A stretch of DNA of 64,000 bases. Source: Planctomycetota bacterium (GTDB lineage Bacteria > Planctomycetota > UBA1135 > UBA2386). This document shows positions 6,233 to 46,776 of this stretch, piece by piece. Made by a program: the position numbers and the translations under genes. How positions within the stretch are numbered: the stretch's first letter is position 1; every line of letters begins with the position of its first letter. Below the pieces are notes generated by a model. The model was not told where the DNA came from and ran no database searches. It saw only the letters and a list, made by a program, of their open reading frames with translations. Where the stretch lies: positions 576,001-640,000 of the forward strand of contig OZ245838.1 in the NCBI GenBank assembly GCA_965228735.1, written 5' to 3'.

Positions 6233-6628
6233 CTATCTCGCTTCGGCACCCACGAACTTCTCAAGCACGCTCTCGGCAATGTCGAGCCATGACGAGTCGG
6301 CTAGCCGGTAGTAGGCGAGCTTGCCTTCGGCGCGGAACTCAACTGCTCCGAGGTTGCGCAGCTCTCGGAGGACCTGCGAGGTGCCGGACATGGAGATCCC
6401 GAGCACTTCACGGAGGTCGCAGACACACAGCTCCCGACCCTGAAGGGCCTTCAGTACGCGCAACCGGTTCGGGTTCGCGAGGACTCGAAAGGCGTCAGCG
6501 ACTCGTTGGAGCTCTGTGGTTGCGGGAAGCGACGCCTGAGCTTCCGAGACCATCGAGCAATCGACCTGGTTGATCTCGCAGGCCCCCTCGCGGGCCTTGG
6601 GGCTCTTCGACTTCGGCGTATCGTTCAT
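6233..6628 (-). CDS. ArsR/SmtB/CadC-family metal-responsive repressor
   Basis: FRVLANPNRLRVL...ELCVCDL...SGTSQVLRELR...EGKLAYY; first gene of the czc operon. Confidence 0.92.
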   Translation of the reverse strand: MNDTPKSKSPKAREGACEINQVDCSMVSEAQASLPATTELQRVADAFRVLANPNRLRVLKALQGRELCVCDLREVLGISMSGTSQVLRELRNLGAVEFRAEGKLAYYRLADSSWLDIAESVLEKFVGAEAR

Positions 6629-6664
6629 CATTTCAGTATATGATGAATCGACCGCGCAGGGCAA
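6624..6664 (-). promoter_or_regulatory. sigma-70-like leaderless promoter with overlapping ArsR-type operator
   Basis: Minus strand reads TTGCCC-N18-TATACT-gaa-ATG-ATG. A perfect inverted repeat TTCATCAT-N8-ATGATGAA at 6624-6647 covers the -10 and the start codon. Confidence 0.7.
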
Positions 6665-7186
6665 GTTGCTGAATGAAACTCTCGTGGGAAGTCACCAGGA
6701 GGTGGTCCGAGGGCGGGTCAAGGCCCCTTGGGATCGGGATTTACGCGCTTCTGAGCTGACCATCAGCGATCGCGAGGAGCTCCCTCGTACCTCATGCGCC
6801 GCGCCCATGACGACGAGAATGCGCTTTCGGCCCTCTTCGGGCCGGATGTTGGAGCCCAGAGGCAGACGTGGCGCTTGCGGGGAGGCAGTCGAAGGGCGTC
6901 TCGTTCTAGCGCTAGATCGCGGATGGCCCTAAACTGGCACAGACCACACTTGGCGAGCGGGATCATTCGGGGGAGAAGTCGTTCGTCATGCCGAACCAGC
7001 GGCGATCAAGTGGCCGGCGTGAGGCTAGCTCCGCGCCTGCGGCCGTTGCGCTCGGGTGAGTTTCGCCTACATTGCGGCCCCTGGGACTCCTTCAGGTGGA
7101 TTTCCTGAGCGGCACCTGGTTGTCAGGGTGAGGCGCTTTCGCGTTATCTCGGCCGTGCATCCGCCTAGCCCAGTCGAGAGAGATCC

Positions 7187-7822
7187 ATGAGAGGACATAT
7201 GAGAACCACCGTGCTCGCACTGCTATGCGGAGTCGTCTTTGGAGGCGTCCAAGCAATCGCTCAGGAGACCAAGAACGTTCCTGCGGCGAAGTCGACTACC
7301 CCGGCCACATACGTCGTCGGCGTGACGGGGATGACCTGAGGCGGTTGCGCCTCGGGGGTCCGTGAGACCCTCGCCAAGATCGCAGGCGTGAAGAGCGTCG
7401 AGATCGACCTCAAAGCCAAGACCGCGACCGTAGCCATGAAGAAGGGGGGGCTGACGCGCGAAGCTGTCGTCAAGGCGCTCGTGGACACCAAGTTCAAGGT
7501 GAGCTCCTTCGCGTCGGTCAAGGCTACGCGCATGACTCCGAAGGGCGTCTACGTCGTGGGCGTGACGGGAATGACTTGAGGCGGTTGCGCCTCGGGGGTC
7601 CGTGAGACCCTCGCCAAGATCGCGGGTGTGAATAGCGTCGAAGTCGACCTCAAGGCCAAGGCCGTGACCGTAGCCATGAAGAAGGGCTCGCTCACTCGCG
7701 AGGCTGTCGTCAAGGCACTTGCAGACACGAAGTTCAAGGTGAGCTCCTTCGCCTTGGTCGAGAAGAAACCGGCGGCGAAGAAGGCTGCCAAACCAGGCAT
7801 CAAGGCCGAGAAGAAGCTCTGA
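7187..7822 (+). CDS. Exported tandem-HMA selenoprotein (two GMT-U-GGC motifs; in-frame TGA at 7337 and 7577)
   Basis: One frame runs from ATG 7187/7199: signal peptide MRTTVLALLCGVVFGGVQAIA, two 80-aa repeats YVVGVTGMT*GGCASGVRETLAKIAGV.SVE.DLKAK..TV, and a Lys-rich tail. Each TGA sits at the first Cys of the HMA GMTCxxC motif and is followed by a SECIS-like hairpin. Confidence 0.88.
7353..7373 (+). promoter_or_regulatory. Putative bacterial SECIS element 1
   Basis: Stem CGGGGGTC/GACCCTCG with loop CGTGA; 21 nt lie between TGA 7337-7339 and the loop. Confidence 0.75.
7593..7613 (+). promoter_or_regulatory. Putative bacterial SECIS element 2
   Basis: Identical hairpin 240 bp downstream, after TGA 7577-7579. 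Confidence 0.75.
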
Positions 7823-7875
7823 GCTGGGTCGGCTAGACGATCGGGCCCCGGGCGCTGGCTGCGGGCCAATGCAAG

Positions 7876-7900
7876 GCCAACGCCACGACGTGGCGTTGGC
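7876..7900. terminator. GC-rich hairpin between convergent genes (possible bidirectional terminator)
   Basis: GCCAACGCCAC-GAC-GTGGCGTTGGC, perfect 11-bp arms; no U-tract. Confidence 0.5.
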
Positions 7901-7957
7901 GCTCAGCTGCAGCCGTGACGCTTCCCACGTCGCGGTTAGCGTCTCGGTTTCGATTCA

Positions 7958-10900
7958 TCAGCCCGTCGTCGTGTGCTGGCTACCGAGCCGCCGCTCCTTG
8001 ATGGTGCAGTAGAGCACGGGTACGACGAATACCGTGAGCATGGCGATCAGCATCCCACCGAAAGAAGGGATGGCCATCGGGACCATGATGTCGGACCCGC
8101 GGCCCGTCGAGGTCAGGACCGGGATGAGTGCGAGGATCGTCGTCGCGCTCGTCATGAGCGCGGGGCGGATACGCTTCTTGGCTCCCTCCACGACCAAGTT
8201 GTGTATGTCTTCGCGAGACCGCGGATGTGCTCCGCGGAAACTCTGTTCGAGGTAGGTCGCCATCACGACGCCGTCGTCTGACGCGATGCCGAATAGGGCC
8301 AGGAATCCGACCCAGATGGCGACGCTCAGGTTGATGGTGTCGACCTGGAAGAGGGCGCGCAGATTCTCGCCGAACAGGTCGATGTCGAGGAAGCCTCCGA
8401 TGCCGTACATCCAGATAAGGAGGAAGCCTCCTGCCCATGCGACCACGATGCCCGAAAACACCAGCAGCGAGGTCGAGACCGAACCGAACTGGAGGTAGAG
8501 GATCAGGAAGATGACGAACAGCGCGACGGGCAAGACCAGCGCAAGCGTCTTTTGGGATCGGATTTGGTTCTCGTAGCTTCCGGAGAAGCTGTAGCTCACG
8601 CCGGCGGGCAGTACGAACTCGCCGGAGTCGAGCTTCTGCTGTAGGAACGCCTGGCATTCTTCAACAACGTCGACTTCTGCGCTGTCCGCTTGCTTGTCGA
8701 AAACCACGTAGCCGATGAGGAACGTGTCTTCACTCTTGATGGCCTGTGGTCCGCGAACGAAGCGAATCTCCGAGAGCTCAGAGAGCGGGACCTGCGCGCC
8801 GGTCGGAGTGGGAACAAGGATCTCTCCGAGGCTCTCGGGCGTGTCGCGCAACTCCCGCAGATACCGGACGCGTACCGGGTACCGCTCACGACCCTCGACC
8901 GTCGTGGTGATTCGCTTACCGCCGATGGCTACCTCGATGACCTGTTGCACCGAGCCGACATGGAGGCCATACCTGCCGAGCGCCTTGCGGTTGAGCTCGA
9001 TCTCGAGGTAGGGCTTGCCAACCAGGCGGTCGGCGGTCACCGTCGGAGCGGATACGCCTGGGACCTGCTTCAGGTAGCGCTCCAGCTGCACGGCGACCTC
9101 CTCGATCGTAGCGAGATCGGGCCCTTTCACCTTGATGCCCATCGGCGCTCGCATGCCGCTTTGCAACATGACGATGCGCGCCGCGATCGGCTGCAGTTTC
9201 GGGGCAGATGTCGTGCCGGGTATCTCGGATGCCGCGACGATCTCGTCCCAGATGTCGTCGGGAGATTTGATGTGATCGCGCCACTGTCGGAACGGGCGTC
9301 CGTTCGTGTCGGGGATCAGGTCGCCTTCTTCGTTTCTCGCAAACTCGCCCGTTTCCTCGTCGAAGCGGAAGCTGATGCGGTCTCCGTCTTTATCGGTGAT
9401 GTATTCGGGCCGATAGTTGATGACCGTCTCGATCATCGAGATCGGGGCTGGGTCAAGAGGAGTTTCAGCTCGACCCAGCTTCCCGACGACTGACTCGACC
9501 TCCGGTATCCTGGCGATGGAGGTGTCCTGATACTGCAGGACCTCCATGGACTCACCGATCGACGCATGGGGGAGTGTCGTCGGCATGAACAGGTAGGAGC
9601 CCTCGTCCAGTGGTGGCATGAACTCCTTGCCGAGCCCCGGGAACACGCTCGCCATCCGTTGCCAGGGTGCACTCTGTCGCATGAACTCGGGCGCAAAGCC
9701 GAAGACGCGATCGAAACCGAACCAGGAGCAGGCGCCGAGAGCGACGATGAGGGTTGGCGCCGACAGGAACAGGAGCTTGTGTCGCAGGCACCATCGCAGG
9801 ACGCGCGGATAAACGCGTTGGAAGGCGAGGAACGTTCCTAGCAGTCCGCCGATCAGAACCCCGACGAATGCCAGGTTCTTGAGGAACCCGCGACTGGGAC
9901 CGAGCGGTAGCCACGATTGCGTTAGTTCGATCAGAACGAATAGCGCAACAGCCAGGCTGACGACGATCGGCCCCGAGTTACCGGTCCAGCGCGGGATCCT
10001 GCTCTTGAGGAGTTGGAATGCCGCAAATGCCAGGAGCAGACTCCCTCCGACGATGCTTGTTGTGATAGCTACGACGAGTCCTGCGGCGGCAAGCCCCGCA
10101 TGCATGAGAGCCTTGGTGCGCGTCGAGCGAATCGAGCCCGTGAACAGGATGTGGGCCGCCGGTGGGATCACCGTCAGTGCGACGATGATCGATGCAACCA
10201 GGGCGAACGTCTTGGTGAAGGCGAGTGGTTGGAAGAGCTTGCCTTCGGCGCCCGTCATCGTGAATACGGGCAAGAAGCTGACGACGGTCGTCGCGACGGA
10301 GGTGATGACGGCGCTGCCAACCTCGCGTGTAGCACGGAAGATCGTCTCGATGGGAGGTGTGTCGGGATCCGCTTCCCTGAGGTGGCGCAGGACGTTCTCA
10401 CAGATGATTACGCCCATGTCGACCATCGTGCCGATGGCGATTGCAATACCCGAAAGCGCGACGATGTTCGCCGCGACCCCGAACGTTCGCATGGCGATGA
10501 AGCACATCAGTACGGCGACTGGGAGCAAAGCGCTGATGAGCAAGGAGCTCCTCAGGTGAAGCACCATGATGAGCATCACGATCATCGTCACGAGGATCTC
10601 CTCGACGAGCGCTGAGTTGAGCGTGCCGAGAGTCTCGTAGATGAGGTCCGTTCGGTCATAGAACGGGACGATGGTCACCTGGCTGAGGTTCACGCCGGTA
10701 GGCCATGCCGACTTCTCATTGGATCTCAAGAACGGCACCCAGGCCGCTTGGTTGAGGTCGTCACCATCGAACGCCTCGAACCCCTGTAGGGCTGCGAAGC
10801 CGCGTAGCGCGTCTTTCGACGTTGCCGTGAAGTCAGCGATTGCCTTCGTCGGCAGTCCAGGGGCGATCTCCGCGATCTTCGCCTTGGTGTTCTTGATCGC

Positions 10901-11808: not shown

Positions 11809-14137
11809 GGAGGTCCTCGCGAGGCTCGAGGGTTTCGATGGCGGAGCCGCAATCCAGCATCTTGGCGCCGTAGTAGGGGTTCTGCACCTCGTCCGAACCC
11901 TGCAACCAACGCGCGCCGCGGCCGTCGAATGCCATTGGGCAATGCATGACACGGACCTTCGCAGGCGAACCGAGTGCGCGGAGTGCCGTTTCAATACCCT
12001 TGGACACTTGCTCGAACGCCGCTCGCGCACCTTCGATGTCGTCGCCCTCGGAAATCTGGCGCGCGCTCGTGACCACTGCGTTCGTCAACGATTGCCACGC
12101 GACTTGCGCCGGTGCTGGTAGAGACGTCGACGAAACGCCGTCGGTTGCGGCGGCCAGCTTCGACGCTGCCGACTTGGCCTTGCTGAGATCGTCAGCTGCG
12201 AGGGCCGAATGCAGATCAGAGTAAGCCTCCCAGTTCCGTCGAAGCGCTGAGCGCACCTCCTCCGGCAACTCGACGGGCGTACCTGACGGGGATTCTGCCG
12301 TCGTTTGGAAGTGCTTCCGCATCATCTCGACCGACGTGGTGAGCTTCCCGAGGTTTGACTTCGCGGTCGACGTGTCAGGCGAAGCACTGCCTTCGAATGC
12401 GTCGTTCGACAGGCGCATCGACAGCTCCATCCACATCTTGTGGGAATCCCCCTCGAACAGCTGCATCCGGGTTTCGGCAACGGCCTTGCCGAGTTGCTCG
12501 AACCGTTGTTTTGCTTCGTGGAGGTCGCCTGCATCTACGGACGCGGTGATGTCAGCGTAGACCCGCTCGATCAGCTGCAGTCGAGTCCGCGCGCCCGCCG
12601 AGAGCATGGAAGCGTGGCTCTGACCCGAGGGCATCGTTGCTGGCTTCGTTCCGGCTCCGCCGCCGTGGTTGTGGCCGCCCGCGGGCTGGCCGCCCGCAGG
12701 GCTCATCATGCTCGGTCTGGCCTGCAACTGGAGAGCGCTGTCGATCTTGAAGTTGCCTTCGGCCACCACGAGCTCGTTTTCCTGGAGGCCGTGAAGGACG
12801 ACGTACTGGTCGCCGGCTCTCGGTCCGAGCACGACCTCCCGACCCTCGTAGGTCGGAGTCTCTCGGTCGGGGAGCTCGACGTAGACGATGGCGCGCGTTC
12901 CGGTCACCAAGGTGGCGGAGACCGGCACAACGAGCGGGGCTTCGTCCTGAACTTCAGTTGCGGGGACGTAGCCGAGTTCGTGGGCAGGGACGAGATCCAT
13001 GCCGCACACGTCGCACTTGCCGGGGCCGTCCTTCACGATCTCGGGATGCATGGGGGAGATCCACTTTCCGACGAGGGATGGATCCATGACCTTGCCAGCG
13101 CCAGCGATCCGGGCCGCGACGGTTGCGTGCACGAACATGTCTGGCTTGAGCAGGCCGTCGGGATTCGGCACGTTCACGCGGACCTTGACGGTGCGTGTGC
13201 GACGGTCGAGGACGGGGTCGATGAAGGAGATTCGGCCGTTGAACCGTCGTCCGCCGTAGGCCTCGGTCTCGAACGAGACCTGCTGACCATATCGAAGCCA
13301 CTCCAGGTCGCTCTCGTATGCGTCCAGTTGCACCCAGACGTGACTGAGGTCCGCGATCGTGAAGATGCGCGTTCCCGTCTGCACGTACATGCCCTCCTGG
13401 GCACTACGGTGGATGACGAGGCCGGATGAAGGTGCGTGGATCGTGACGTGCTCCTCGGCAGATCCCCGTTTCTCGATTGCCGAGATCTGCTCCTTCGAGA
13501 GGCCCCAGAGGCGCAGCTTCTCTCGTGCCGAGTCGATGGTGCCCTGAGCCGAGGCTCTCAGTGATTCGAACTCGCTCTTCTGCAGGTCTCCAAGCGATGC
13601 TAGCGCCTGTAGCAGCTCCTCCTGCGCGCTATAGAGCTCAGGGCTGTAGAGCTTCACCATGTGGTCACCCTTGCGCACGGTGACCCCGGTGAAGTCTACG
13701 TAGAGCTCGTCGATTCTCCCTGGAACCCAAGCGGTGATGTAGCCGAGTCGTGTCTCGTCGTAGGTCACCTTGCCGACGAGGCGCACCCTTGCATCGGGGA
13801 AGCGTCGCTCGACGGGGACGGTTCGAACGCGCATGAGGGCTCGCTGTTCCGGACGTATCGTCAGTTGTCGTAGCCCACCCGAGTCGCCGCCGCTCGAGGC
13901 CCGGATGAGATCCATCCCGCAGATGGGGCACTTGCCCTGCGATGGCATGCGGATCTGTGGGTGCATGGAGCAGGTCCACACTTCGGCTGCAGCGGCATGG
14001 CCTTCGTGCGTAGTCGTCGAGTGCTCGGGGTGCGTGGGCGGTGTTGCATCACCCCATAGGAGGTAGCCGACTCCGAGCCCGGCGATGGTTGTGGCGACGA
14101 GCAGCGCGGTCAGACGGGTGGTCTTGCTTACGTTCAT
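11798..14137 (-). CDS. cusB: CusB-like membrane fusion protein with heavy-metal-binding domains and DUF3347-like C-terminus
   Basis: WTCSMHPQI...CPICGMDL, SPMHPEIV...CDVCGMDL, and C-terminal HCPMAF...WLQ...NPYYGAKMLDCG. Confidence 0.9.
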   Translation of the reverse strand: MNVSKTTRLTALLVATTIAGLGVGYLLWGDATPPTHPEHSTTTHEGHAAAAEVWTCSMHPQIRMPSQGKCPICGMDLIRASSGGDSGGLRQLTIRPEQRALMRVRTVPVERRFPDARVRLVGKVTYDETRLGYITAWVPGRIDELYVDFTGVTVRKGDHMVKLYSPELYSAQEELLQALASLGDLQKSEFESLRASAQGTIDSAREKLRLWGLSKEQISAIEKRGSAEEHVTIHAPSSGLVIHRSAQEGMYVQTGTRIFTIADLSHVWVQLDAYESDLEWLRYGQQVSFETEAYGGRRFNGRISFIDPVLDRRTRTVKVRVNVPNPDGLLKPDMFVHATVAARIAGAGKVMDPSLVGKWISPMHPEIVKDGPGKCDVCGMDLVPAHELGYVPATEVQDEAPLVVPVSATLVTGTRAIVYVELPDRETPTYEGREVVLGPRAGDQYVVLHGLQENELVVAEGNFKIDSALQLQARPSMMSPAGGQPAGGHNHGGGAGTKPATMPSGQSHASMLSAGARTRLQLIERVYADITASVDAGDLHEAKQRFEQLGKAVAETRMQLFEGDSHKMWMELSMRLSNDAFEGSASPDTSTAKSNLGKLTTSVEMMRKHFQTTAESPSGTPVELPEEVRSALRRNWEAYSDLHSALAADDLSKAKSAASKLAAATDGVSSTSLPAPAQVAWQSLTNAVVTSARQISEGDDIEGARAAFEQVSKGIETALRALGSPAKVRVMHCPMAFDGRGARWLQGSDEVQNPYYGAKMLDCGSAIETLEPREDLRGK

Positions 14138-28248: not shown

Positions 28249-28551
28249 ATGAAGCATCTCTGGATTGCCTGCGCAGTCATCGTCGCGCTGTCATTCGCTG
28301 GCTGCAGCACGGTCAAGCACGACTCTCAGCTCACGTCTACCCAAGTCCACCTTGTCCTGGACAAGACGCCGACTTGAGGCGGTTGTGCCGCCACCGTGCG
28401 TGGTGCCGTGACCAAGCTCCCTGGCGTGTCGGGAATCGAGGTCGAGCCTGGTTCGGCCGATATCGTCGTCAGCCTTGACCCCAATGCGACAACTGTAGAG
28501 CAGTTGCTTGCGGGAATGGACGCCGCTGGGCAGTCGGCAAAGCGCAAGTAG
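28249..28551 (+). CDS. HMA-domain selenolipoprotein (KTPT-U-GGC; in-frame TGA at 28375)
   Basis: MKHLWIACAVIVALSFAGC lipobox; ...VHLVLDKTPT*GGCAATVRGAVTKLPGVSGIEVEPGSADIVVSLDPNATTVEQLLAGMDAAGQSAKRK then TAG; 100 aa with read-through. Confidence 0.85.
28381..28413 (+). promoter_or_regulatory. Putative bacterial SECIS element 3
   Basis: GGTTGTG-C-CGCCAC[CGTGC]GTGGTG-C-CGTGACC; 17 nt lie between the TGA and the loop; the loop shares CGTG with SECIS 1 and 2. Confidence 0.68.
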
Positions 28552-34396: not shown

Positions 34397-37375
34397 CTAT
34401 CCAGTTCCTCGCGCAGCCATGAGGTCGAGTATCGTGTTCTCCAGCACCAGAGTCCCCATCGAAGGCAGCCACCTTTCGCGGTCTTCGAGCAGGTGTCGGG
34501 CTACGGAGAGGACGGCTTCTCGGTCATCTCCACGATCCGACGCAAGCTCAGGGCTGCGGCCAAGCGCTACAGCAGCTCGTCGGTGCCTGACTCCGCCAGC
34601 TGCGAGCAATCTTCCGGCAGGCGTTGGGACACCGAAGCGTAGGTGCTCGGGGAAGTCCGCAACGGCCTTAGACAGTTCGAGGTTATTCGCGTCGAGCAGC
34701 TTCCTTAGCAGCCCGATGCCCTGCTCGACGGCTACCTGGAGGACGTAGCTGACGACCCGGGAATGAACGCCGAGCATGGTGTCGATATCGGTTTCCGTCT
34801 GGCTGGCGATCTCCGCCAGAGATCGGCCGTCGATCCACGCCTCCAAGATCCTGGCGAAACTCGACCGCGATGGGGGGGATCCCCGGTAGGCCTCGTCGAG
34901 TGCCTCGGCTACCTCGGGAAGGCCCCACGCCCAGACCAGCAGTGTCTCTGTCAACTCCGGATCGGTTGGCGTTTCGATGTCATCCCAGCGTTGTCGCATG
35001 GGTAACAGATTGACCTCCACCGACTCCAGCATTCGTGCTCGCGTACCCGTTTCTCGGATCCATGCGAGTCTCCCCGCTCCCTTGATGGCTGCCACGCGTT
35101 GAGCACGCAGCTCGAACACCTGTTTCATCAGTGCCGTGGTCGTTTGTTGAGCTTGGCGGGCCGCGAAAGTCTGGCTCGAAAGCTCTCCGGCCATGCGCAC
35201 GAGTTCATCTTCGCCTAGCTCCTCGGCGGCAAGATCGATAAGCGTTGCATCGATGCCGTCGATCAGAGTGTGAAGCGCCGTCGCACCCTCAAGGATGTCG
35301 TTTGTGAGGGTGATGCTCCGCTGGCTCAGTGCTGACTCGACGCGCCCCATCAACTCGAGCAGTGCCCCGGAGACGCGTTCGCCTGGCTGTTGCTCGGCCA
35401 CGGGGGCGACAAGTTGCCATTGTCCAGGGTTGGCGCAGATGACCAGCCCCTTGGTGGTTGCCCCAGCTCGTCCAGCGCGCCCGACGAGGTTCTTGATGTC
35501 GCGCGCGAGCAGGTTCTCTGCTGCTCCGTTGGGGCCACGACGCTGCACGGAGTAGAGGACCAACGTCCTGATCGGCAGGTTGACGCCTTCCGCCAAAGTG
35601 TTGGTGCAGATGGCAAGGCGAACGTCTTTGTCGCGAATCAGCGATTCCACGACTTCCCTGCTCTCTTGCGGAATGTCTCCATGATGCAGTATGGCTCCTG
35701 CCGCAAGTGTTCGTGTGCCCACCCAGGAAGCGCCGTATTCCAGGGTGAAGTGCTCAACTGCCGACTGCAGCTTCACCGCATCCCCGACGAACTGCATGGG
35801 GGCGGGCAGGGGCAGCAGGCTCGCCAGTTGTTGGAGGAGTTCATGAGCGAGCCCTACGGCTCCCTGAGTGCCTCTCTTGTTGGCCGCGAACACGGCAACG
35901 GACCCCATCGAGAGCGACTTCCGTGCTGCTGCGATGGCTTGGGCCTTCACAGATTTGAAAGGGTATGTGTTCAGCCGGTTCGTAGTGGGATTGCGGTGGC
36001 GAAAGTCATCACGGCTCAGGAATCGTTCGATAGAGAACGTGGATGCGGCTTGGTGTGGGTGAAGCTGAAGCGCGACCGTCATGGCGGCGCCTTTGCCAGC
36101 TACCTGCAGCGCTGCGAACTCTGCGAGAGCCGGGCGGTAGTCACTGCGAACGACGGTCTGATCCGTGCCGCCAAGCCACACGTTGATCTCCTCGATGTTC
36201 GGGACGATCGCGGAAACGAAGACGAACTTTGGCGGGCCTTTCTCGCGGGCGCGCATGCGGGCGAGCAGCAACTCAAGTCCGACCCCGCGCGCCTCACCAT
36301 CGAGGAGGTGCCCTTCGTCGCAGATGACGAGGGATACTCGGGAGTAGAAGTCCGGCTCTGCGCTGAGCAGGCCCGATAGTGCCTCAGGCGTTGCGACGAT
36401 CGCGCGTGCTGCATCGAGGTCTCTGACTTCTTCGCCGGTGGGCACGGTACCTCCATACGCACACCTGGTGGGAAGGCCCATGTTGCTCAAGCGCTTTGCA
36501 AGGCTGCCGCGAAGCTCTGCCGCGAGCGAGCGAAAGGGGACGAGCAGGATGGCCACATCCTGCGGGTTGCGGTTGAGGTGGTGAAAGAGGAGGGTCTCAG
36601 AGAGAGCTGTCTTTCCCGCGCCTGTCGGCATCTGTAGGGAGAATGAGGCCACGCTTCCAAGCAGGCCGCTCCTAATGGCATCGATTTGCGAGGGGAAGAA
36701 ATCCCAGGTAGGTGGGGTCCGGTTGAGGAACGACCGCACTAGCGGGTCCCAGAATCCCGATTCGCCATCGGGTAGAACTGCACGGACGTTAGTTCGCTCG
36801 AACTTGGAGAGGACCCGCCCGAATAGCCGCCAGCCGATCCACTCACCGGAATCTGTGTGCAGTGCAGATGCCTCCTTCTCAGTCGCGTACTCGCCCTCCG
36901 CCCGAAGCACCTCAAGGTTCCCTCTTCGAACGCCGCCAACAAGGGTACGCACACGTGCCGACCTGATCGCCGGTGGACGTGAGAGCAGCTCGTAGCACGC
37001 GAGCTGAATGTCATCGAGGGCACCCGGGTCGCAGGTCTTCAACGTGACGTAGGCCGATGCAGAGTAACCGCCGAAGTAGAACGCGGCCGCAGCAAAGATG
37101 GCGGCTTCGGCCGCCATGATACCGGAGTAGGCGTTTGCCCGAGCTTCTCCTACGCCGCCGGCCTGAGTGATGGCGTTGCCCAGGCGTGACCAGTCGACCG
37201 GATCGCGGTAGGGCTCACGGAGCCTGTCGAAGAGCTCGCCGACGAGGGAAATGTAGTAGTCGTCGCCTCGTGACCTGATGTAGCTCAGCTGTAGTGGCGG
37301 CTGCGAGGAGCCGAACCGTTCCACGTGATGAAGGGCGTCAGCGTCACCGACCCACTTTGCCAGAGTTGCCCTCAC
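34397..37375 (-). CDS. hamB: Hachiman HamB-like Ski2/DEAD-box helicase
   Basis: MPTGAGKT, VATPE, DEGH, SAI, HHG, TNTLAEGVNLP and GRAGR; coupled to hamA by a GTGA overlap. Confidence 0.85.
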   Translation of the reverse strand: MRATLAKWVGDADALHHVERFGSSQPPLQLSYIRSRGDDYYISLVGELFDRLREPYRDPVDWSRLGNAITQAGGVGEARANAYSGIMAAEAAIFAAAAFYFGGYSASAYVTLKTCDPGALDDIQLACYELLSRPPAIRSARVRTLVGGVRRGNLEVLRAEGEYATEKEASALHTDSGEWIGWRLFGRVLSKFERTNVRAVLPDGESGFWDPLVRSFLNRTPPTWDFFPSQIDAIRSGLLGSVASFSLQMPTGAGKTALSETLLFHHLNRNPQDVAILLVPFRSLAAELRGSLAKRLSNMGLPTRCAYGGTVPTGEEVRDLDAARAIVATPEALSGLLSAEPDFYSRVSLVICDEGHLLDGEARGVGLELLLARMRAREKGPPKFVFVSAIVPNIEEINVWLGGTDQTVVRSDYRPALAEFAALQVAGKGAAMTVALQLHPHQAASTFSIERFLSRDDFRHRNPTTNRLNTYPFKSVKAQAIAAARKSLSMGSVAVFAANKRGTQGAVGLAHELLQQLASLLPLPAPMQFVGDAVKLQSAVEHFTLEYGASWVGTRTLAAGAILHHGDIPQESREVVESLIRDKDVRLAICTNTLAEGVNLPIRTLVLYSVQRRGPNGAAENLLARDIKNLVGRAGRAGATTKGLVICANPGQWQLVAPVAEQQPGERVSGALLELMGRVESALSQRSITLTNDILEGATALHTLIDGIDATLIDLAAEELGEDELVRMAGELSSQTFAARQAQQTTTALMKQVFELRAQRVAAIKGAGRLAWIRETGTRARMLESVEVNLLPMRQRWDDIETPTDPELTETLLVWAWGLPEVAEALDEAYRGSPPSRSSFARILEAWIDGRSLAEIASQTETDIDTMLGVHSRVVSYVLQVAVEQGIGLLRKLLDANNLELSKAVADFPEHLRFGVPTPAGRLLAAGGVRHRRAAVALGRSPELASDRGDDREAVLSVARHLLEDRERWLPSMGTLVLENTILDLMAARGTG

Positions 37376-38184
37376 GTCTCACCGCCCGCTTCCGCGACGG
37401 TGGCATGAGCGGCGTCGAATACGGCTTCGTAGCGTTCCTTCAGGTTTGGAACTGCGATGACTACAACCGTGTGGTCTGCAGGCGCTTCGTCGGGCGCGTC
37501 TGCCAGTTCGTTGTCCACGAGGTTCTCGCAAATGACCGCGACGGCGTGGAAGCACTTCTTGGCTTGGGGGTGGTCCGTGGCCTTGATGAAGCGGTCGAGG
37601 TGATCGATGGTCGTGCTGCCAAGGTCTTCATGAAGCGCACGTTCCCTCAGCCAAACTAGGGTCTTCGCCAATCGACTGGTTCGGTCTTTCTCGCAGTCAT
37701 CAATCGCCTTGGAAATCGGTGATGAGGCTCCGGCCGTGGCCTTCGTCTTTACCTCAGAGCACAGGATGCGGTCCTCGGTCGAGGAGCGTGGCCAGCTCGG
37801 CAGCACGAAGTGAACGACATCCGAGTGTGGCGCTGGTTTTGTTCGGTCCTGCTTCAGGCGCCACTTCTTTGGGCCAATGAGGTCGACATCGCGTTCGGCA
37901 GCTGCGTGGTAGAGAAACACCAGTATCTCGCCGAAGTCCCCTGACATCGTCGAACCTGGATCCGGGAGCCTCGCGGCGACGATCTCCGACCGAGGGCAAC
38001 CGGTTGCCTGCACGCGCGCCTTGAGGACGGTGTCATCGATGTAGCACCGACGGACTGAGACACCAAGGACGTCCGACCAAGCAGCAGCGTGCTCGTCGGG
38101 AACACGCACAAGCACGAAGGGCGATCGCTGCTCTTCGGCGAACCAGCGTGTCACGGTCTCAACTTCGAGGCCAAGGTCTCGCAT
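37372..38184 (-). CDS. hamA: Hachiman HamA-like (DUF1837) nuclease
   Basis: SGDFGEIL...HSDVVHF...SEVKT PD-(D/E)xK-like pattern directly upstream of the helicase. Confidence 0.8.
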   Translation of the reverse strand: MRDLGLEVETVTRWFAEEQRSPFVLVRVPDEHAAAWSDVLGVSVRRCYIDDTVLKARVQATGCPRSEIVAARLPDPGSTMSGDFGEILVFLYHAAAERDVDLIGPKKWRLKQDRTKPAPHSDVVHFVLPSWPRSSTEDRILCSEVKTKATAGASSPISKAIDDCEKDRTSRLAKTLVWLRERALHEDLGSTTIDHLDRFIKATDHPQAKKCFHAVAVICENLVDNELADAPDEAPADHTVVVIAVPNLKERYEAVFDAAHATVAEAGGET

Positions 38185-43885: not shown

Positions 43886-45351
43886 CCCTCCTGATTTGAG
43901 GGTCTCATGGATCGGAGGGCTACTCAAGTCGGCGGGTTGCGAGCGGTCTTGGGTTGAGGGAGAAAGTGGCTAGCCCAATAGCTGTGGCTTCCCGGAAGGA
44001 TGCCGCTCCTCAGGCGAGCGCAGCCCTCTTGTGTTCCCGTGAAGCTCTAAGGGGAGGACGGCAACCATCGCAAGATCGAATGAGGCGGCTGAGGGTCCGC
44101 TCGAGGATTGCTGTTGCCCAGTGGGCTAGTCGCGTCGACCAACTCATCTAGAACTTCTGCACGAGTTCCAGAGCTCGCTTCCCATAGGTCGCGAGCTCGT
44201 CGCTATCGACCAACTGCCCGCTGCTCGTGCCATCGTCTTGTGGGTGGTGGTATCGCTTCGCGTAATCCTTGAGGTCCTCCAAGTCTTCGAGGATGCACTT
44301 GGCCTGTGCGAGCGGAGATCCTTCGTCGGCGTCCGCGATGGCCTTCACGTAGTCGCCGAGCCATCCCTTCGCGTCAAGCTGGTTCGGCAACTTCCACCGA
44401 AGGTACTTCTCCAGCAGGACGCGCATTGTCTTCACAACACTCTCGGGGCTGCCATCGCGATACTCGCAATACTTCCAGAGTGTCGTGAAGTTCTGATAGT
44501 ACTCCTCAAGCACTTCGCTCTCGATGTCCCACTCCATCACGCCGCCAAGCTCAGTGAGCTGGAGTGTCTTCTTCTCGGCCGCGGGCAACTCGTCCCATAT
44601 GAGCTTTAGGAAGTTGGGGTCGTGGGACAGAACGACAACTTGGCGTGTCTTCTGGGCGAGCCTTCTGATGCTCTGCTGAGTGCAGACTCTTCTCCCGCGA
44701 TCCTGGCTAGTAAAGGGGTCGTCCAGCACGACCACTTTGTCCGCCAGGTTTGGACTCGCCTCGACCTGAGCGAAAAAGAACGCCAACGCAAGAGCGCTCT
44801 TGTCACCTGCGCTGAGCGTGTTCTTGAACGACGCCTGGTCATTGGGCGTCTTGAGGTCCCCTAGCCTCACCTCCTCCCATGAACCCTCGTGCGCCTCGAT
44901 GGCTAGGCAATAAGTCGTGCGAGGCTTCCCGCCCGGAAACTCGGCCGCCGTCTTTCGAACTCTGAAGGATGTGCCGAACCTCTTGAGATACTCGTTGATG
45001 CGCTTTTCGTAGCGTTGAAAGACGCTCTCGGAGTAATTCTCGAGCTTCTGTTTTGCCTTCAACTTCTCGAGGTCAGCTGCAGCTCTCTTGGTCCGTGCGG
45101 CGAGTAGCTCCTGGCATGCTGCTGTTGCCTCCGCCCCCGCTCGAGTATTCGTCGCCGCGAGTTCGGCAAGGTCTTGTCTTGCCTCCGTCAGGCCTCCCTT
45201 GCGCGATTCCTCTTGCTTGGCCCGCATTGCAGCGTTGACCCTCTCGACGGCCGAGTTGTAAGCCATCACCGAGGACCGTGCCTGAGCGACTGCTTCCTCT
45301 GCCGCACTCAGTTCCAGAGCAATATCGATTGCCTCTAGCGGCGCCTCACAC

Positions 45352-46776
45352 GGTAGTGCAGCATGCGTTCTGTAAACCGCCCGAGGCAGCTTGACGCAGT
45401 CGGCGGTGGTCGTCGCGGTCGGTCTGGGCGCTGCACCCTGGGTGCAGTGGCCAGGCCGACCGCGACGACCACCGCCGGCGCGGACGGATGCTTCAAGTCG
45501 GCGAGTCACGACGCTCAGCTTTTGTTAACCACAACGAAAGCAGAACGAAGTGACCCACCAATCCGAAAGTAGCACGCTCGACACCGTCTTGGAATCCATC
45601 GCAACGCAGGGTCTGGGAGGGATCGCGGACGCGATCCGCGTCCTCGTGAACGAGGCCATGAAGATCGAGCGATCCGCGTTCCTGGGCGCCGGTCCAAACG
45701 AGCGTACCGAGTCACGACGGGGCTACGCCAACGGCTTCAAGCCGAAGACCGTGGCGACTCGCGTCGGCGCGATCGAGTTCGCCGTCCCGCAGGTCCGCGA
45801 GGCCGTCGACGGCGAACGCTTCTATCCGACGGCACTCGAACGCGGGATTCGCTCGGAGCGCGCCCTGAAGCTCGCGGTCGCCGAGATGTACGTCCAGGGC
45901 GTCTCGACCCGCAAGGTCGCCGCGATCACCGAGGAGCTCTGCGGAGTACAGGTGTCGTCCCAGCAGGTCTCCCGGGCCGCCGCGGCACTCGACGACGAGC
46001 TGCAGCAGTGGCGGATGCGCGAGCTCGGCCGGTGCCGCTACCTGGTCCTCGATGCCCGCTACGAAAAGGTCCGGCACGCCGGCTCCGTCATGAGCGCCGC
46101 CGTCCTGATCGCGACGGGCGTCGATGATGCAGGCCATCGCTCGGTCCTCGGCGTCAGCGTGTCGCGCTCGGAAGCCGAGGTCCACTGGCGCGACTTCCTC
46201 GACAGCCTGCGTGAACGTGGCCTGCACGGGCTCGGACTCATCGTCAGTGACGACCACTCTGGCCTCCGCCAAGCTTTGGCGGCGAGCTTTCCCGGAGTCG
46301 CTTGGCAACGCTGCCAGTTCCACCTGCAACGCAACGCCGCTCCACGAGTGCCGACCGTCTCGTTGCGCCCGTCGATCGCTCGTGGACTTCGTGCGGTCTT
46401 CAACGCTCCAGACCGACCTGAGGCCGAACGGCTTCTTGATAGGCTTCTGGAGGATCACGCGGAAACCGCTCCCGACTTTGTCCGGTGGGCTCGCGACAAC
46501 GTCCCCGACGGCTTCGCTGTCTTCGCGATCCCGGCGACGCACCGTCGCTGCCTTCGCACGACCAACATGCTCGAGCGCCTCAACAAGGAGCTCCTGCGCC
46601 GCACCCGCGTTGCGACGCTCTTCCCCAACGACGCCTCTCTTCTCCGGCTCGCCACCGCGGTCCTCATGGAGATCAGCGAGGACTGGGTGACTGGCCGTCG
46701 CTATCTCTCCATGGACGCTGAGTGAAATGATTCGCCGACTATGGGCTCGCTCTTACAGAACGAATGTTGCTTTGCC
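45352..46776 (+). mobile_element. IS256-family insertion sequence, 1425 bp
   Basis: Imperfect 24-bp terminal IRs (GGTAGTGCAGCATGCGTTCTGTAA / GGCAAAGCAACATTCGTTCTGTAA); 8-bp TSD CCTCACAC at 45344-45351 and 46777-46784. Confidence 0.95.
45550..46725 (+). CDS. IS256 (Mutator-like) transposase
   Basis: EMYVQGVSTRKV, LDARYEKVR, SDDHSGL, WQRCQFH, TTNMLERLN. Confidence 0.96.
   Translation: MTHQSESSTLDTVLESIATQGLGGIADAIRVLVNEAMKIERSAFLGAGPNERTESRRGYANGFKPKTVATRVGAIEFAVPQVREAVDGERFYPTALERGIRSERALKLAVAEMYVQGVSTRKVAAITEELCGVQVSSQQVSRAAAALDDELQQWRMRELGRCRYLVLDARYEKVRHAGSVMSAAVLIATGVDDAGHRSVLGVSVSRSEAEVHWRDFLDSLRERGLHGLGLIVSDDHSGLRQALAASFPGVAWQRCQFHLQRNAAPRVPTVSLRPSIARGLRAVFNAPDRPEAERLLDRLLEDHAETAPDFVRWARDNVPDGFAVFAIPATHRRCLRTTNMLERLNKELLRRTRVATLFPNDASLLRLATAVLMEISEDWVTGRRYLSMDAE

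Follow-up and report, generated by a model that had tools for sequence, protein, structure and literature searches.

Introduction

The accessible part of a 2026 review counts 119 selenoprotein families, a small subset of which carry two or three selenocysteine (Sec, U) residues, and it describes most catalogued bacterial selenoproteins as presumed redox enzymes, listing as open what Sec contributes as a metal ligand when it occurs in small binding proteins (PMC13188914). The families listed there include NF041115 (UxxU_metal_bind), which is HMA-like and carries two Sec, a UxxC heavy-metal ATPase and a putative mercuric transport protein (PMC13188914). A Sec form of an exported HMA protein had also been reported in the available part of the GOS survey, as one table row with 2 sequences named 'Mercuric transport protein MerP' (PMC2398784).

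Here we analysed a gene located in a 64,000-nucleotide stretch of a Planctomycetota genome (hereafter the window; positions 576001-640000 of G000, the host genome, a single 7.19-Mb contig with 69% G+C), which is predicted to encode an exported protein with two HMA repeats, each with Sec in a GMT-U-GG-C motif. Like this protein, NF041115 members have an HMA-like domain, Sec at the metal motif and two Sec per protein, and are known from prediction only. Their UxxU motif, however, lies in one domain of 74 positions, whereas the window protein has UxxC in both repeats, each with its own SECIS element, although some of its relatives show UxxU or UxxxU. The window protein scored 70.7 bits on the NF041115 model when summed over the two repeats (41.9 for one), below the cut-off of 95, and none of the five genomes searched contained a match over that cut-off. 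A three-repeat homolog sums to 97.9, so the border to NF041115 is not sharp. MerP (TIGR02052) shares export, the HMA domain and a GMTCxxC-type motif, but the window protein has two repeats and reaches 58 bits against a cut-off of 92.55; merT, merA and merR were not found beside the gene, its neighbours being ArsR, RND and copper genes. The MerT/CopZ fusion-like selenoprotein NF045683 is likewise a Sec-containing heavy-metal protein with an HMA-type region; it is a membrane transporter, whereas the window protein is soluble after its N-terminal segment and scores 53 bits, from the HMA part only, against 375. The E1-E2 cation-transporting ATPase with UxxC (the TIGR01525 row in the accessible part of the review) also combines Sec with an HMA-type region and, unlike the window protein, is a membrane transporter. 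Finally, the CopZ/Atx1 chaperones and the tandem domains of CopA/ATP7B have the same fold but are cytoplasmic and contain Cys only, in contrast to the signal-like N-terminus and Sec of the window protein. CopZ is single-domain and lacks a signal peptide, and scores on CopZ models, summed over the two repeats of the window protein, remained below the cut-offs (84.2/85 for NF047957, 82.3/91 and 70.9/95 bits). The protein undershot every curated NCBIfam cut-off.

The available part of the review table includes no exported tandem UxxC HMA protein, and planctomycetes go unmentioned there (PMC13188914); the family is likewise absent from the accessible parts of PMC13326102, PMC12013277, PMC1976440 and bioRxiv 10.1101/2022.07.06.499078. 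A full-text literature search returned no paper on it, and further selenoprotein catalogues might list it. The initial annotation had seen novelty in two Sec residues within one secreted protein on a mobile metal island; this was overstated, since proteins with 2-3 Sec, and NF041115 itself, already appear in the accessible part of that catalogue (PMC13188914). Sec-HMA proteins and two-Sec proteins are known as kinds, and what is new is an uncatalogued exported Sec-HMA family with 1-3 repeats and up to 4 Sec, below the curated NCBIfam cut-offs.

Results

A single reading frame hidden by two TGA codons

On the + strand, one frame runs from ATG 7187 or ATG 7199 to a stop TGA at 7820-7822. Retranslation confirmed what had first been noticed, namely that this frame is interrupted solely by TGA 7337-7339 and TGA 7577-7579, at Cys1 of a GMTCxxC motif; both codons sit in GMT-*-GG-C, with a distance of 240 nt (80 codons) between them. 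As the closest homologs start at the Met aligned with ATG 7199, translation more likely begins there. The product opens with a hydrophobic N-terminus that ends in A-I-A and continues with two repeats of 80 aa and a Lys/Ala tail (Table 1). Its best 11-residue hydropathy was 2.75 in the N-terminus against 1.61 elsewhere, in keeping with the signal peptide originally proposed, and the N-terminus was the most hydrophobic stretch in 23 of the 23 U-containing family sequences measured. Judged by inspection, this pattern and its conservation fit a cleavable signal peptide, and the protein is likely exported (Sec/SPI). With U read as C, the Pfam HMA model (PF00403) matched two stretches with 81.8 bits, against a cut-off of 24.8. 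AlphaFold2 predicted two beta-alpha-beta-beta-alpha-beta (ferredoxin-like) domains, with pLDDT >90 over most of the length (mean 80.6; 130 residues at 90 or more), and a fold search matched each domain to Atx1, CopZ and MerP with TM-scores near 0.8, the best whole-chain matches being the tandem domains of ATP7B and CopA. The Pfam score and the predicted fold thus agree that both repeats are HMA domains, as annotated at the outset.

Table 1 Features predicted at and around the two-Sec HMA gene (window coordinates).
Feature	Position	Strand	Remarks
Putative sigma-70 promoter	7046..7073	+	Inferred; -35 TTGCGC 7046-7051, -10 TACATT 7068-7073
Two-Sec tandem HMA protein gene	7199..7822	+	207 aa; alternative start ATG 7187
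Predicted Sec/SPI signal peptide	7199..7261	+	Sequence inspection; basic N-region, hydrophobic core, A-I-A end
HMA repeat 1 (GMT-U-GG-C)	7307..7519	+	Pfam, AlphaFold2, fold search
In-frame TGA, predicted Sec 1	7337..7339	+	Homolog alignment; Cys1 column
Predicted SECIS 1	7353..7373	+	8-bp stem, loop CGUGA, 21 nt past UGA, -13 kcal/mol
HMA repeat 2 (GMT-U-GG-C)	7544..7759	+	87% nt identical to repeat 1
In-frame TGA, predicted Sec 2	7577..7579	+	Homolog alignment
Predicted SECIS 2	7593..7613	+	Same sequence as SECIS 1
Lys/Ala-rich tail	7760..7819	+	Low model confidence (likely disordered)
Perfect 11-bp hairpin	7876..7900	.	No U-run; between this gene and convergent cusA
Second hidden Sec-HMA gene, predicted lipoprotein	28249..28551	+	PT-U-GG-C; TGA 28375-28377

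An identical protein is encoded in G013, a genome of a different genus, so the TGA codons do not arise from an assembly error. Contigs from DNA runs covered TGA 7337 in 4 of 4 runs and TGA 7577 in 2 of 4, without changes; the confirmation against sequencing data proposed earlier therefore stands for assembled contigs, not for raw reads. A 47-nt segment common to both repeats showed about twofold depth in two DNA runs, as two copies need, and diverged contigs from RNA libraries retained both TGA codons. RNA-library contigs also cover 7118-7866, but since the runs had been selected by this stretch, we do not deduce expression from them. A six-frame scan of the 7.19-Mb genome for GM[TSH]-TGA-xx-C returned just these 2 sites, and the TAA/TAG versions returned none, a pattern that goes beyond chance. 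The public protein collection holds the gene and its close variants only as 63-64-aa fragments lying between TGAs, and protein-database searches gave fragments that begin past the TGA together with multi-HMA ATPases.

Selenocysteine machinery, co-occurrence and predicted SECIS elements

The host genome encodes selA (454 bits, cut-off 268), selB (337/242), selD (367/125) and tRNA-Sec (76.6/47), so that the full selA/selB/selC/selD set is in place, and the host selD itself has an in-frame TGA, in GSG-U-AAK. TGA ends 1219 of 1865 long ORFs and is the commonest stop of the host, which indicates that the codon has not been reassigned genome-wide.

Homologs were searched in 61 relatives, in 401 genomes of the phylum and in 251 of the class. 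For the phylum search, every TGA-containing row was translated among the 150 matches listed of 299, and the counts are therefore lower bounds. Among these listed matches TGA occupied the Cys1 position in 36 genomes, and in four rows it terminated a protein with Cys at the motif; another TGA row, from G244, was unframed and left out of the Sec-form count. All 36 Sec-form genomes among the matches listed have selA, compared with 294 of the 401 genomes sampled, and selA was also present in 12 of 12 further Sec-form genomes, giving 48/48 verified TGA-at-Cys1 genomes, a figure that overstates independence because the genomes are related. In the two selA-negative genomes with TGA in the listed match, the motif carried Cys and TGA was the end stop. 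Among verified family genes, TAA or TAG never occurred at the Sec site, and the TGA column holds down to about 30% identity. Past the first TGA, dN/dS ranged from 0.10 to 0.40 in 8 of 9 pairs and was 0.81 in the other; by this comparison, the codons downstream of the first TGA are under purifying selection.

According to the accessible part of the review, the bSECIS model comprises a loop of 3-9 nt with G in the first two loop positions, a stem of 4-16 bp, a distance of 16-37 nt from the UGA and an MFE <= -7.5 (PMC13188914). Both predicted hairpins fall within all of these limits (5-nt loop, 8 bp, 21 nt, -13 kcal/mol), and no comparable hairpin lies behind the end-stop TGA 7820. We found 33 homolog hairpins, dropped 3 identical ones and analysed the 30 distinct sequences, in which 85% of cells pair and both sides change in 7 of 8 pairs; deriving the structure from the window's sequence biases these values somewhat in its favour. 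None of 500 shuffles reached any of five measures, and slid controls paired at 32-48%. Moreover, the Arg codon in the loop was CGT in 25 of 27 Arg cases, against a host usage of 8.7%; other Arg codons in the family genes were CGT in 13 of 151. Taken alone, the hairpin regions had unremarkable folding z-scores (-0.3 to -1.7), and a loosely defined hairpin stands behind 24,743 of the 134,581 host TGA triplets (18%), so the case for SECIS rests on the comparison. A strict hairpin pattern, defined after the hairpin had been seen, occurs behind 30 of those 134,581. Five of the 33 hairpins, all from one host family, keep the stem and lose the G-G/G-U loop, with a second hairpin behind. The host selD hairpin has a similar 5-nt loop, CGGGC. 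In the UxxU/UxxxU members L121, L125, L130 and L135, the first stem is kept, the loop is changed and a second conserved hairpin lies directly behind, possibly providing one hairpin per UGA.

The locus therefore presents what is expected of a bacterial selenoprotein gene: TGA at a conserved Cys, SelA, SelB, SelD and tRNA-Sec in the host, hairpins conforming to the bSECIS model and constraint downstream. With the machinery, SECIS covariation, selA co-occurrence and dN/dS all backing the double Sec reading of the initial annotation, both UGAs are very likely read as Sec in a SelB-dependent manner, as far as comparison of sequences can tell.

A family with one to three repeats and a probable internal duplication

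Family members have a hydrophobic N-terminus and 1-3 HMA repeats, with UxxC, UxxxC, UxxU, UxxxU or lone U motifs. Sec in two or three separate repeats was found in at least 10 other genomes, with two Sec in G013 (identical), G040, G048, G173, G250 and G323, three in G234, G343 and G387, and four in G227, and the finding is thus of a family rather than of a single gene. Six members that lack the second motif Cys carry a Cys in the beta2-beta3 loop, which presumably faces the metal site, as in MerP; this suggests, from the alignment, that a two-ligand site is retained in them. P0082 represents an all-Cys counterpart (32% identity) with a signal-like N-terminus, two GMSCGAC motifs and a Lys tail, and P0011 a three-repeat form whose Sec sites are recorded as Trp. 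The database entries P0002 and P0011 show Gly or Trp at the Sec column, which likely comes from gene callers using another genetic code.

In a quick domain tree (75 columns; 44 of 84 inner branches open; five mis-anchored duplicate rows included, two of them labelled Cys), the two repeats of the window protein were mutual nearest relatives (87% nt identity, dN/dS 0.18), so the two-Sec state likely arose when the domain, together with its SECIS, was recently duplicated within the gene. They fall inside a clade with support 97 that consists mostly of Sec domains with few Cys members, and in the same tree the Cys counterparts P0082 and P0024 share a clade with Sec domains. The G528 ortholog is 86% identical and has a single repeat. 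A single repeat agrees with such a duplication but was rejected as proof of the ancestral state, as a 47-nt identical repeat can collapse in short-read assemblies; the fragment P0009 contains a G528-like repeat followed by another GMT. The 79 loci found by a pattern scan of genome contigs with the read-through protein, in which the patterns assumed Cys codons, had 26-57% identity, and none was a close relative.

Other Sec-HMA genes of the host

Another hidden Sec-HMA gene shares the island with this one (Table 1). It follows the genes for a copper P-type ATPase and a TRASH/YHS-like protein and has a hairpin at 28389-28405 with the loop CGUGC. This lipoprotein type was matched in 41 of the 251 class genomes, with TGA at the motif in 28 of the 29 translated loci, and in four other genomes it adjoins a multicopper oxidase. 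Elsewhere in the host we noted a PS-U-GG-C gene after a multicopper oxidase in the adjacent island (L179; G000 494192, - strand), a chromosomal PY-U-GH-C lipoprotein (L176; 3694905, - strand) and, also on the chromosome, an exported two-Sec protein that lacks both a second Cys and a Pfam match (L175; 2372 and 2123, - strand). Three of the host's five Sec-HMA genes are located either in the window island or by a multicopper oxidase in the adjacent one. Inspection of the host genome by eye also turned up some 30 more candidate genes with an in-frame TGA and thioredoxin-, peroxiredoxin-, MsrA-, SelW- or AhpD-like motifs; the host selenoproteome is possibly very large.

Location on a mobile metal island

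The two-Sec HMA gene is carried by a 78.9-kb element (G000 564,827-643,706; 61-65% G+C), which has tRNA-Gly(CCC) and a 50-bp direct repeat at its borders. G013 contains it with 99.97-100% identity, inserted at the same tRNA but in other flanking DNA. The element encodes an integrase, a TrwC relaxase, a TrwB-type coupling protein, three RND systems, two P-type ATPases, a multicopper oxidase and a Hachiman-like pair; the ORFs scanned included no mating-pore genes, so the element is likely mobilisable and not self-transmissible. Its boundaries and metal gene cargo bear out the mobile metal island first suspected. At the same tRNA-Gly(CCC), G000 482,210-643,706 forms a tandem island array, with att-like copies at 564,827, 541,752, 489,185 and 482,210.

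Several other features of the window were recorded. Its cusA-like gene (~11593, - strand) has a 70-nt deletion near the 5' end that shifts the frame; the island copy of G013 has an intact cusA (~1300 aa), and the frameshift is either a mutation or an assembly error. A Mutator/IS256-family insertion at 45351-46774 splits an AAA_13 gene and is absent from the G013 copy, and transposase genes of the same family, with equal score, occur at other host sites. The Hachiman-like defence pair consists of a HamA-like gene and a DEAD-box helicase (34397-38184, - strand). A tRNA-Ala(AGC) called by ARAGORN at 13551-13638 (- strand), inside the cusB coding region, is probably false.

The two-Sec HMA gene lies between two heavy-metal RND operons, on the strand opposite to both, and appears to have its own promoter and terminator. 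Both hexamers of the putative promoter (Table 1) are identical in the G528 ortholog, where the spacer has diverged; a consensus promoter scan did not list this promoter. The hairpin behind the gene is likely its terminator, and the stop of RNA-library contigs from three studies at 7851-7866 gives a weak hint in this direction. The promoter hexamers and the downstream hairpin are both conserved with G528, there beside a multicopper oxidase. An ArsR-type operator is located about 550 nt from the gene, over the promoter of the other strand: the inverted repeat TTCATCAT-N8-ATGATGAA at 6624-6647, which covers the -10 box and the start of an ArsR/SmtB gene, is likely the ArsR/SmtB operator of the czc-like (ArsR-czcBAC) operon. 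A regulatory RNA in the 5' leader was considered and dropped, a two-sequence fold being too thin for the claim, and an Rfam scan of 6600-8000 gave nothing near the gathering score.

In a neighbour survey that scanned 77 of 197 ORFs in one set and 33 of 49 in the other, clear metal genes were near neighbours at 2 of 25 homolog loci (G381 and G528), and an AcrB-family pump of unspecified type was nearby at the G566 locus. No CusF match was found among the island ORFs scanned.

Discussion

We favour, with a probability of roughly 0.6, the view that the gene encodes an exported, free-standing buffer for soft metals with two sites, each made of a selenolate and a thiolate, a reading drawn from sequence comparison and predicted structure. 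Selenolate has a low pKa and affinity for soft metals. SelB very likely binds the in-frame CGUGA-loop hairpin 21 nt past each UGA and inserts Sec twice, an internal duplication having presumably copied domain, UGA and SECIS together and so created the second Sec site. The signal peptide would be cleaved after A-I-A, and the two selenolate/thiolate sites would then scavenge soft metal in the periplasm, both steps being put forward with moderate confidence. Each HMA domain could hold one soft metal ion between Sec and Cys, most likely Cu(I)/Ag(I) and possibly Hg(II)/Cd(II); metal binding as such is inferred from the modelled fold. Hand-over to pumps, oxidases or importers would use those available in the host, with no dedicated partner, and without selenium just a 46-residue stub would be made.

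Against a metal buffer stand the scarcity of clear metal genes around the homologs (2 of 25 loci) and the varied spacing of the motif (UxxC, UxxxC, UxxU, UxxxU, lone U), which suits redox chemistry as well as chelation. A periplasmic UxxC also tends to oxidise to selenenylsulfide. A less probable alternative is an exported selenoprotein whose UxxC centres perform selenenylsulfide/selenol-thiol cycling or scavenge electrophiles on an HMA scaffold, metal binding being incidental. It would explain why most homologs stand alone amid unrelated genes and why Sec is constant across members that differ in second ligand and spacing; motif inspection also points to numerous thioredoxin-, peroxiredoxin- and MsrA-like selenoproteins in the host, and uncharacterised UxxC selenoproteins are considered mostly likely redox in the accessible part of the review (PMC13188914). 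However, the predicted fold is HMA and not thioredoxin, the closest ortholog and several other host Sec-HMA genes adjoin copper genes, and HMA domains of known function are generally metal binders.

The initial annotation proposed a periplasmic Sec-based metal chaperone or sponge lying between two RND operons. Its location on the metal island holds, and the lack of a CusF match among the island ORFs scanned would leave room for a dedicated metallochaperone that replaces CusF and feeds the adjacent CusCBA-like or CzcCBA-like pump. A functional link to these operons finds no support: the gene runs opposite to both operons with its own apparent promoter and terminator, the ArsR-type operator overlaps the opposite-strand promoter at a distance of some 550 nt, the unit of promoter, gene and hairpin recurs in G528 with different neighbours, homologs mostly stand alone and no heavy-metal RND system was identified among the ORFs scanned beside the 25 homolog loci, all of which makes this chaperone unlikely. 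Far less probable still is that the gene is a pseudogene disrupted by two nonsense codons, that the assembly is wrong, or that TGA is reassigned genome-wide. Islands do gather broken genes, and the neighbouring cusA is frameshifted in this assembly, but a TGA that is never TAA or TAG in the same column of 48 selA-bearing genomes, down to about 30% identity, together with purifying selection downstream, a covarying hairpin and independent contigs with the same codons, argues against decay or artefact, and the rank of TGA as the commonest host stop argues against reassignment.

The value of the finding lies not in two Sec as such but in an uncatalogued family, in the modularity of repeat plus SECIS and in a recently transferred island, on which a selenoprotein gene is seen moving intact between genera. 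It also exposes an annotation gap, the gene being stored as 63-64-aa fragments or, as in P0011, with Trp at the Sec sites. Since one small soluble scaffold occurs naturally in UxxC, UxxxC, UxxU, U-only and all-Cys versions, it is possible to measure directly how selenium alters metal affinity. More speculatively, and with the odds against it, Planctomycetota may hold a wealth of exported Sec-HMA proteins so far missed by annotation, which would gain Sec valency by duplication of domain plus SECIS (up to 4 Sec, against the 2-3 catalogued), with a mobilisable island spreading two such genes between Sec-competent genera, so that the periplasmic copper, silver or mercury defence of these marine biofilm bacteria would depend on the supply of selenium. 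If true, this would amount to a selenium-gated, horizontally transferred metal-resistance module.
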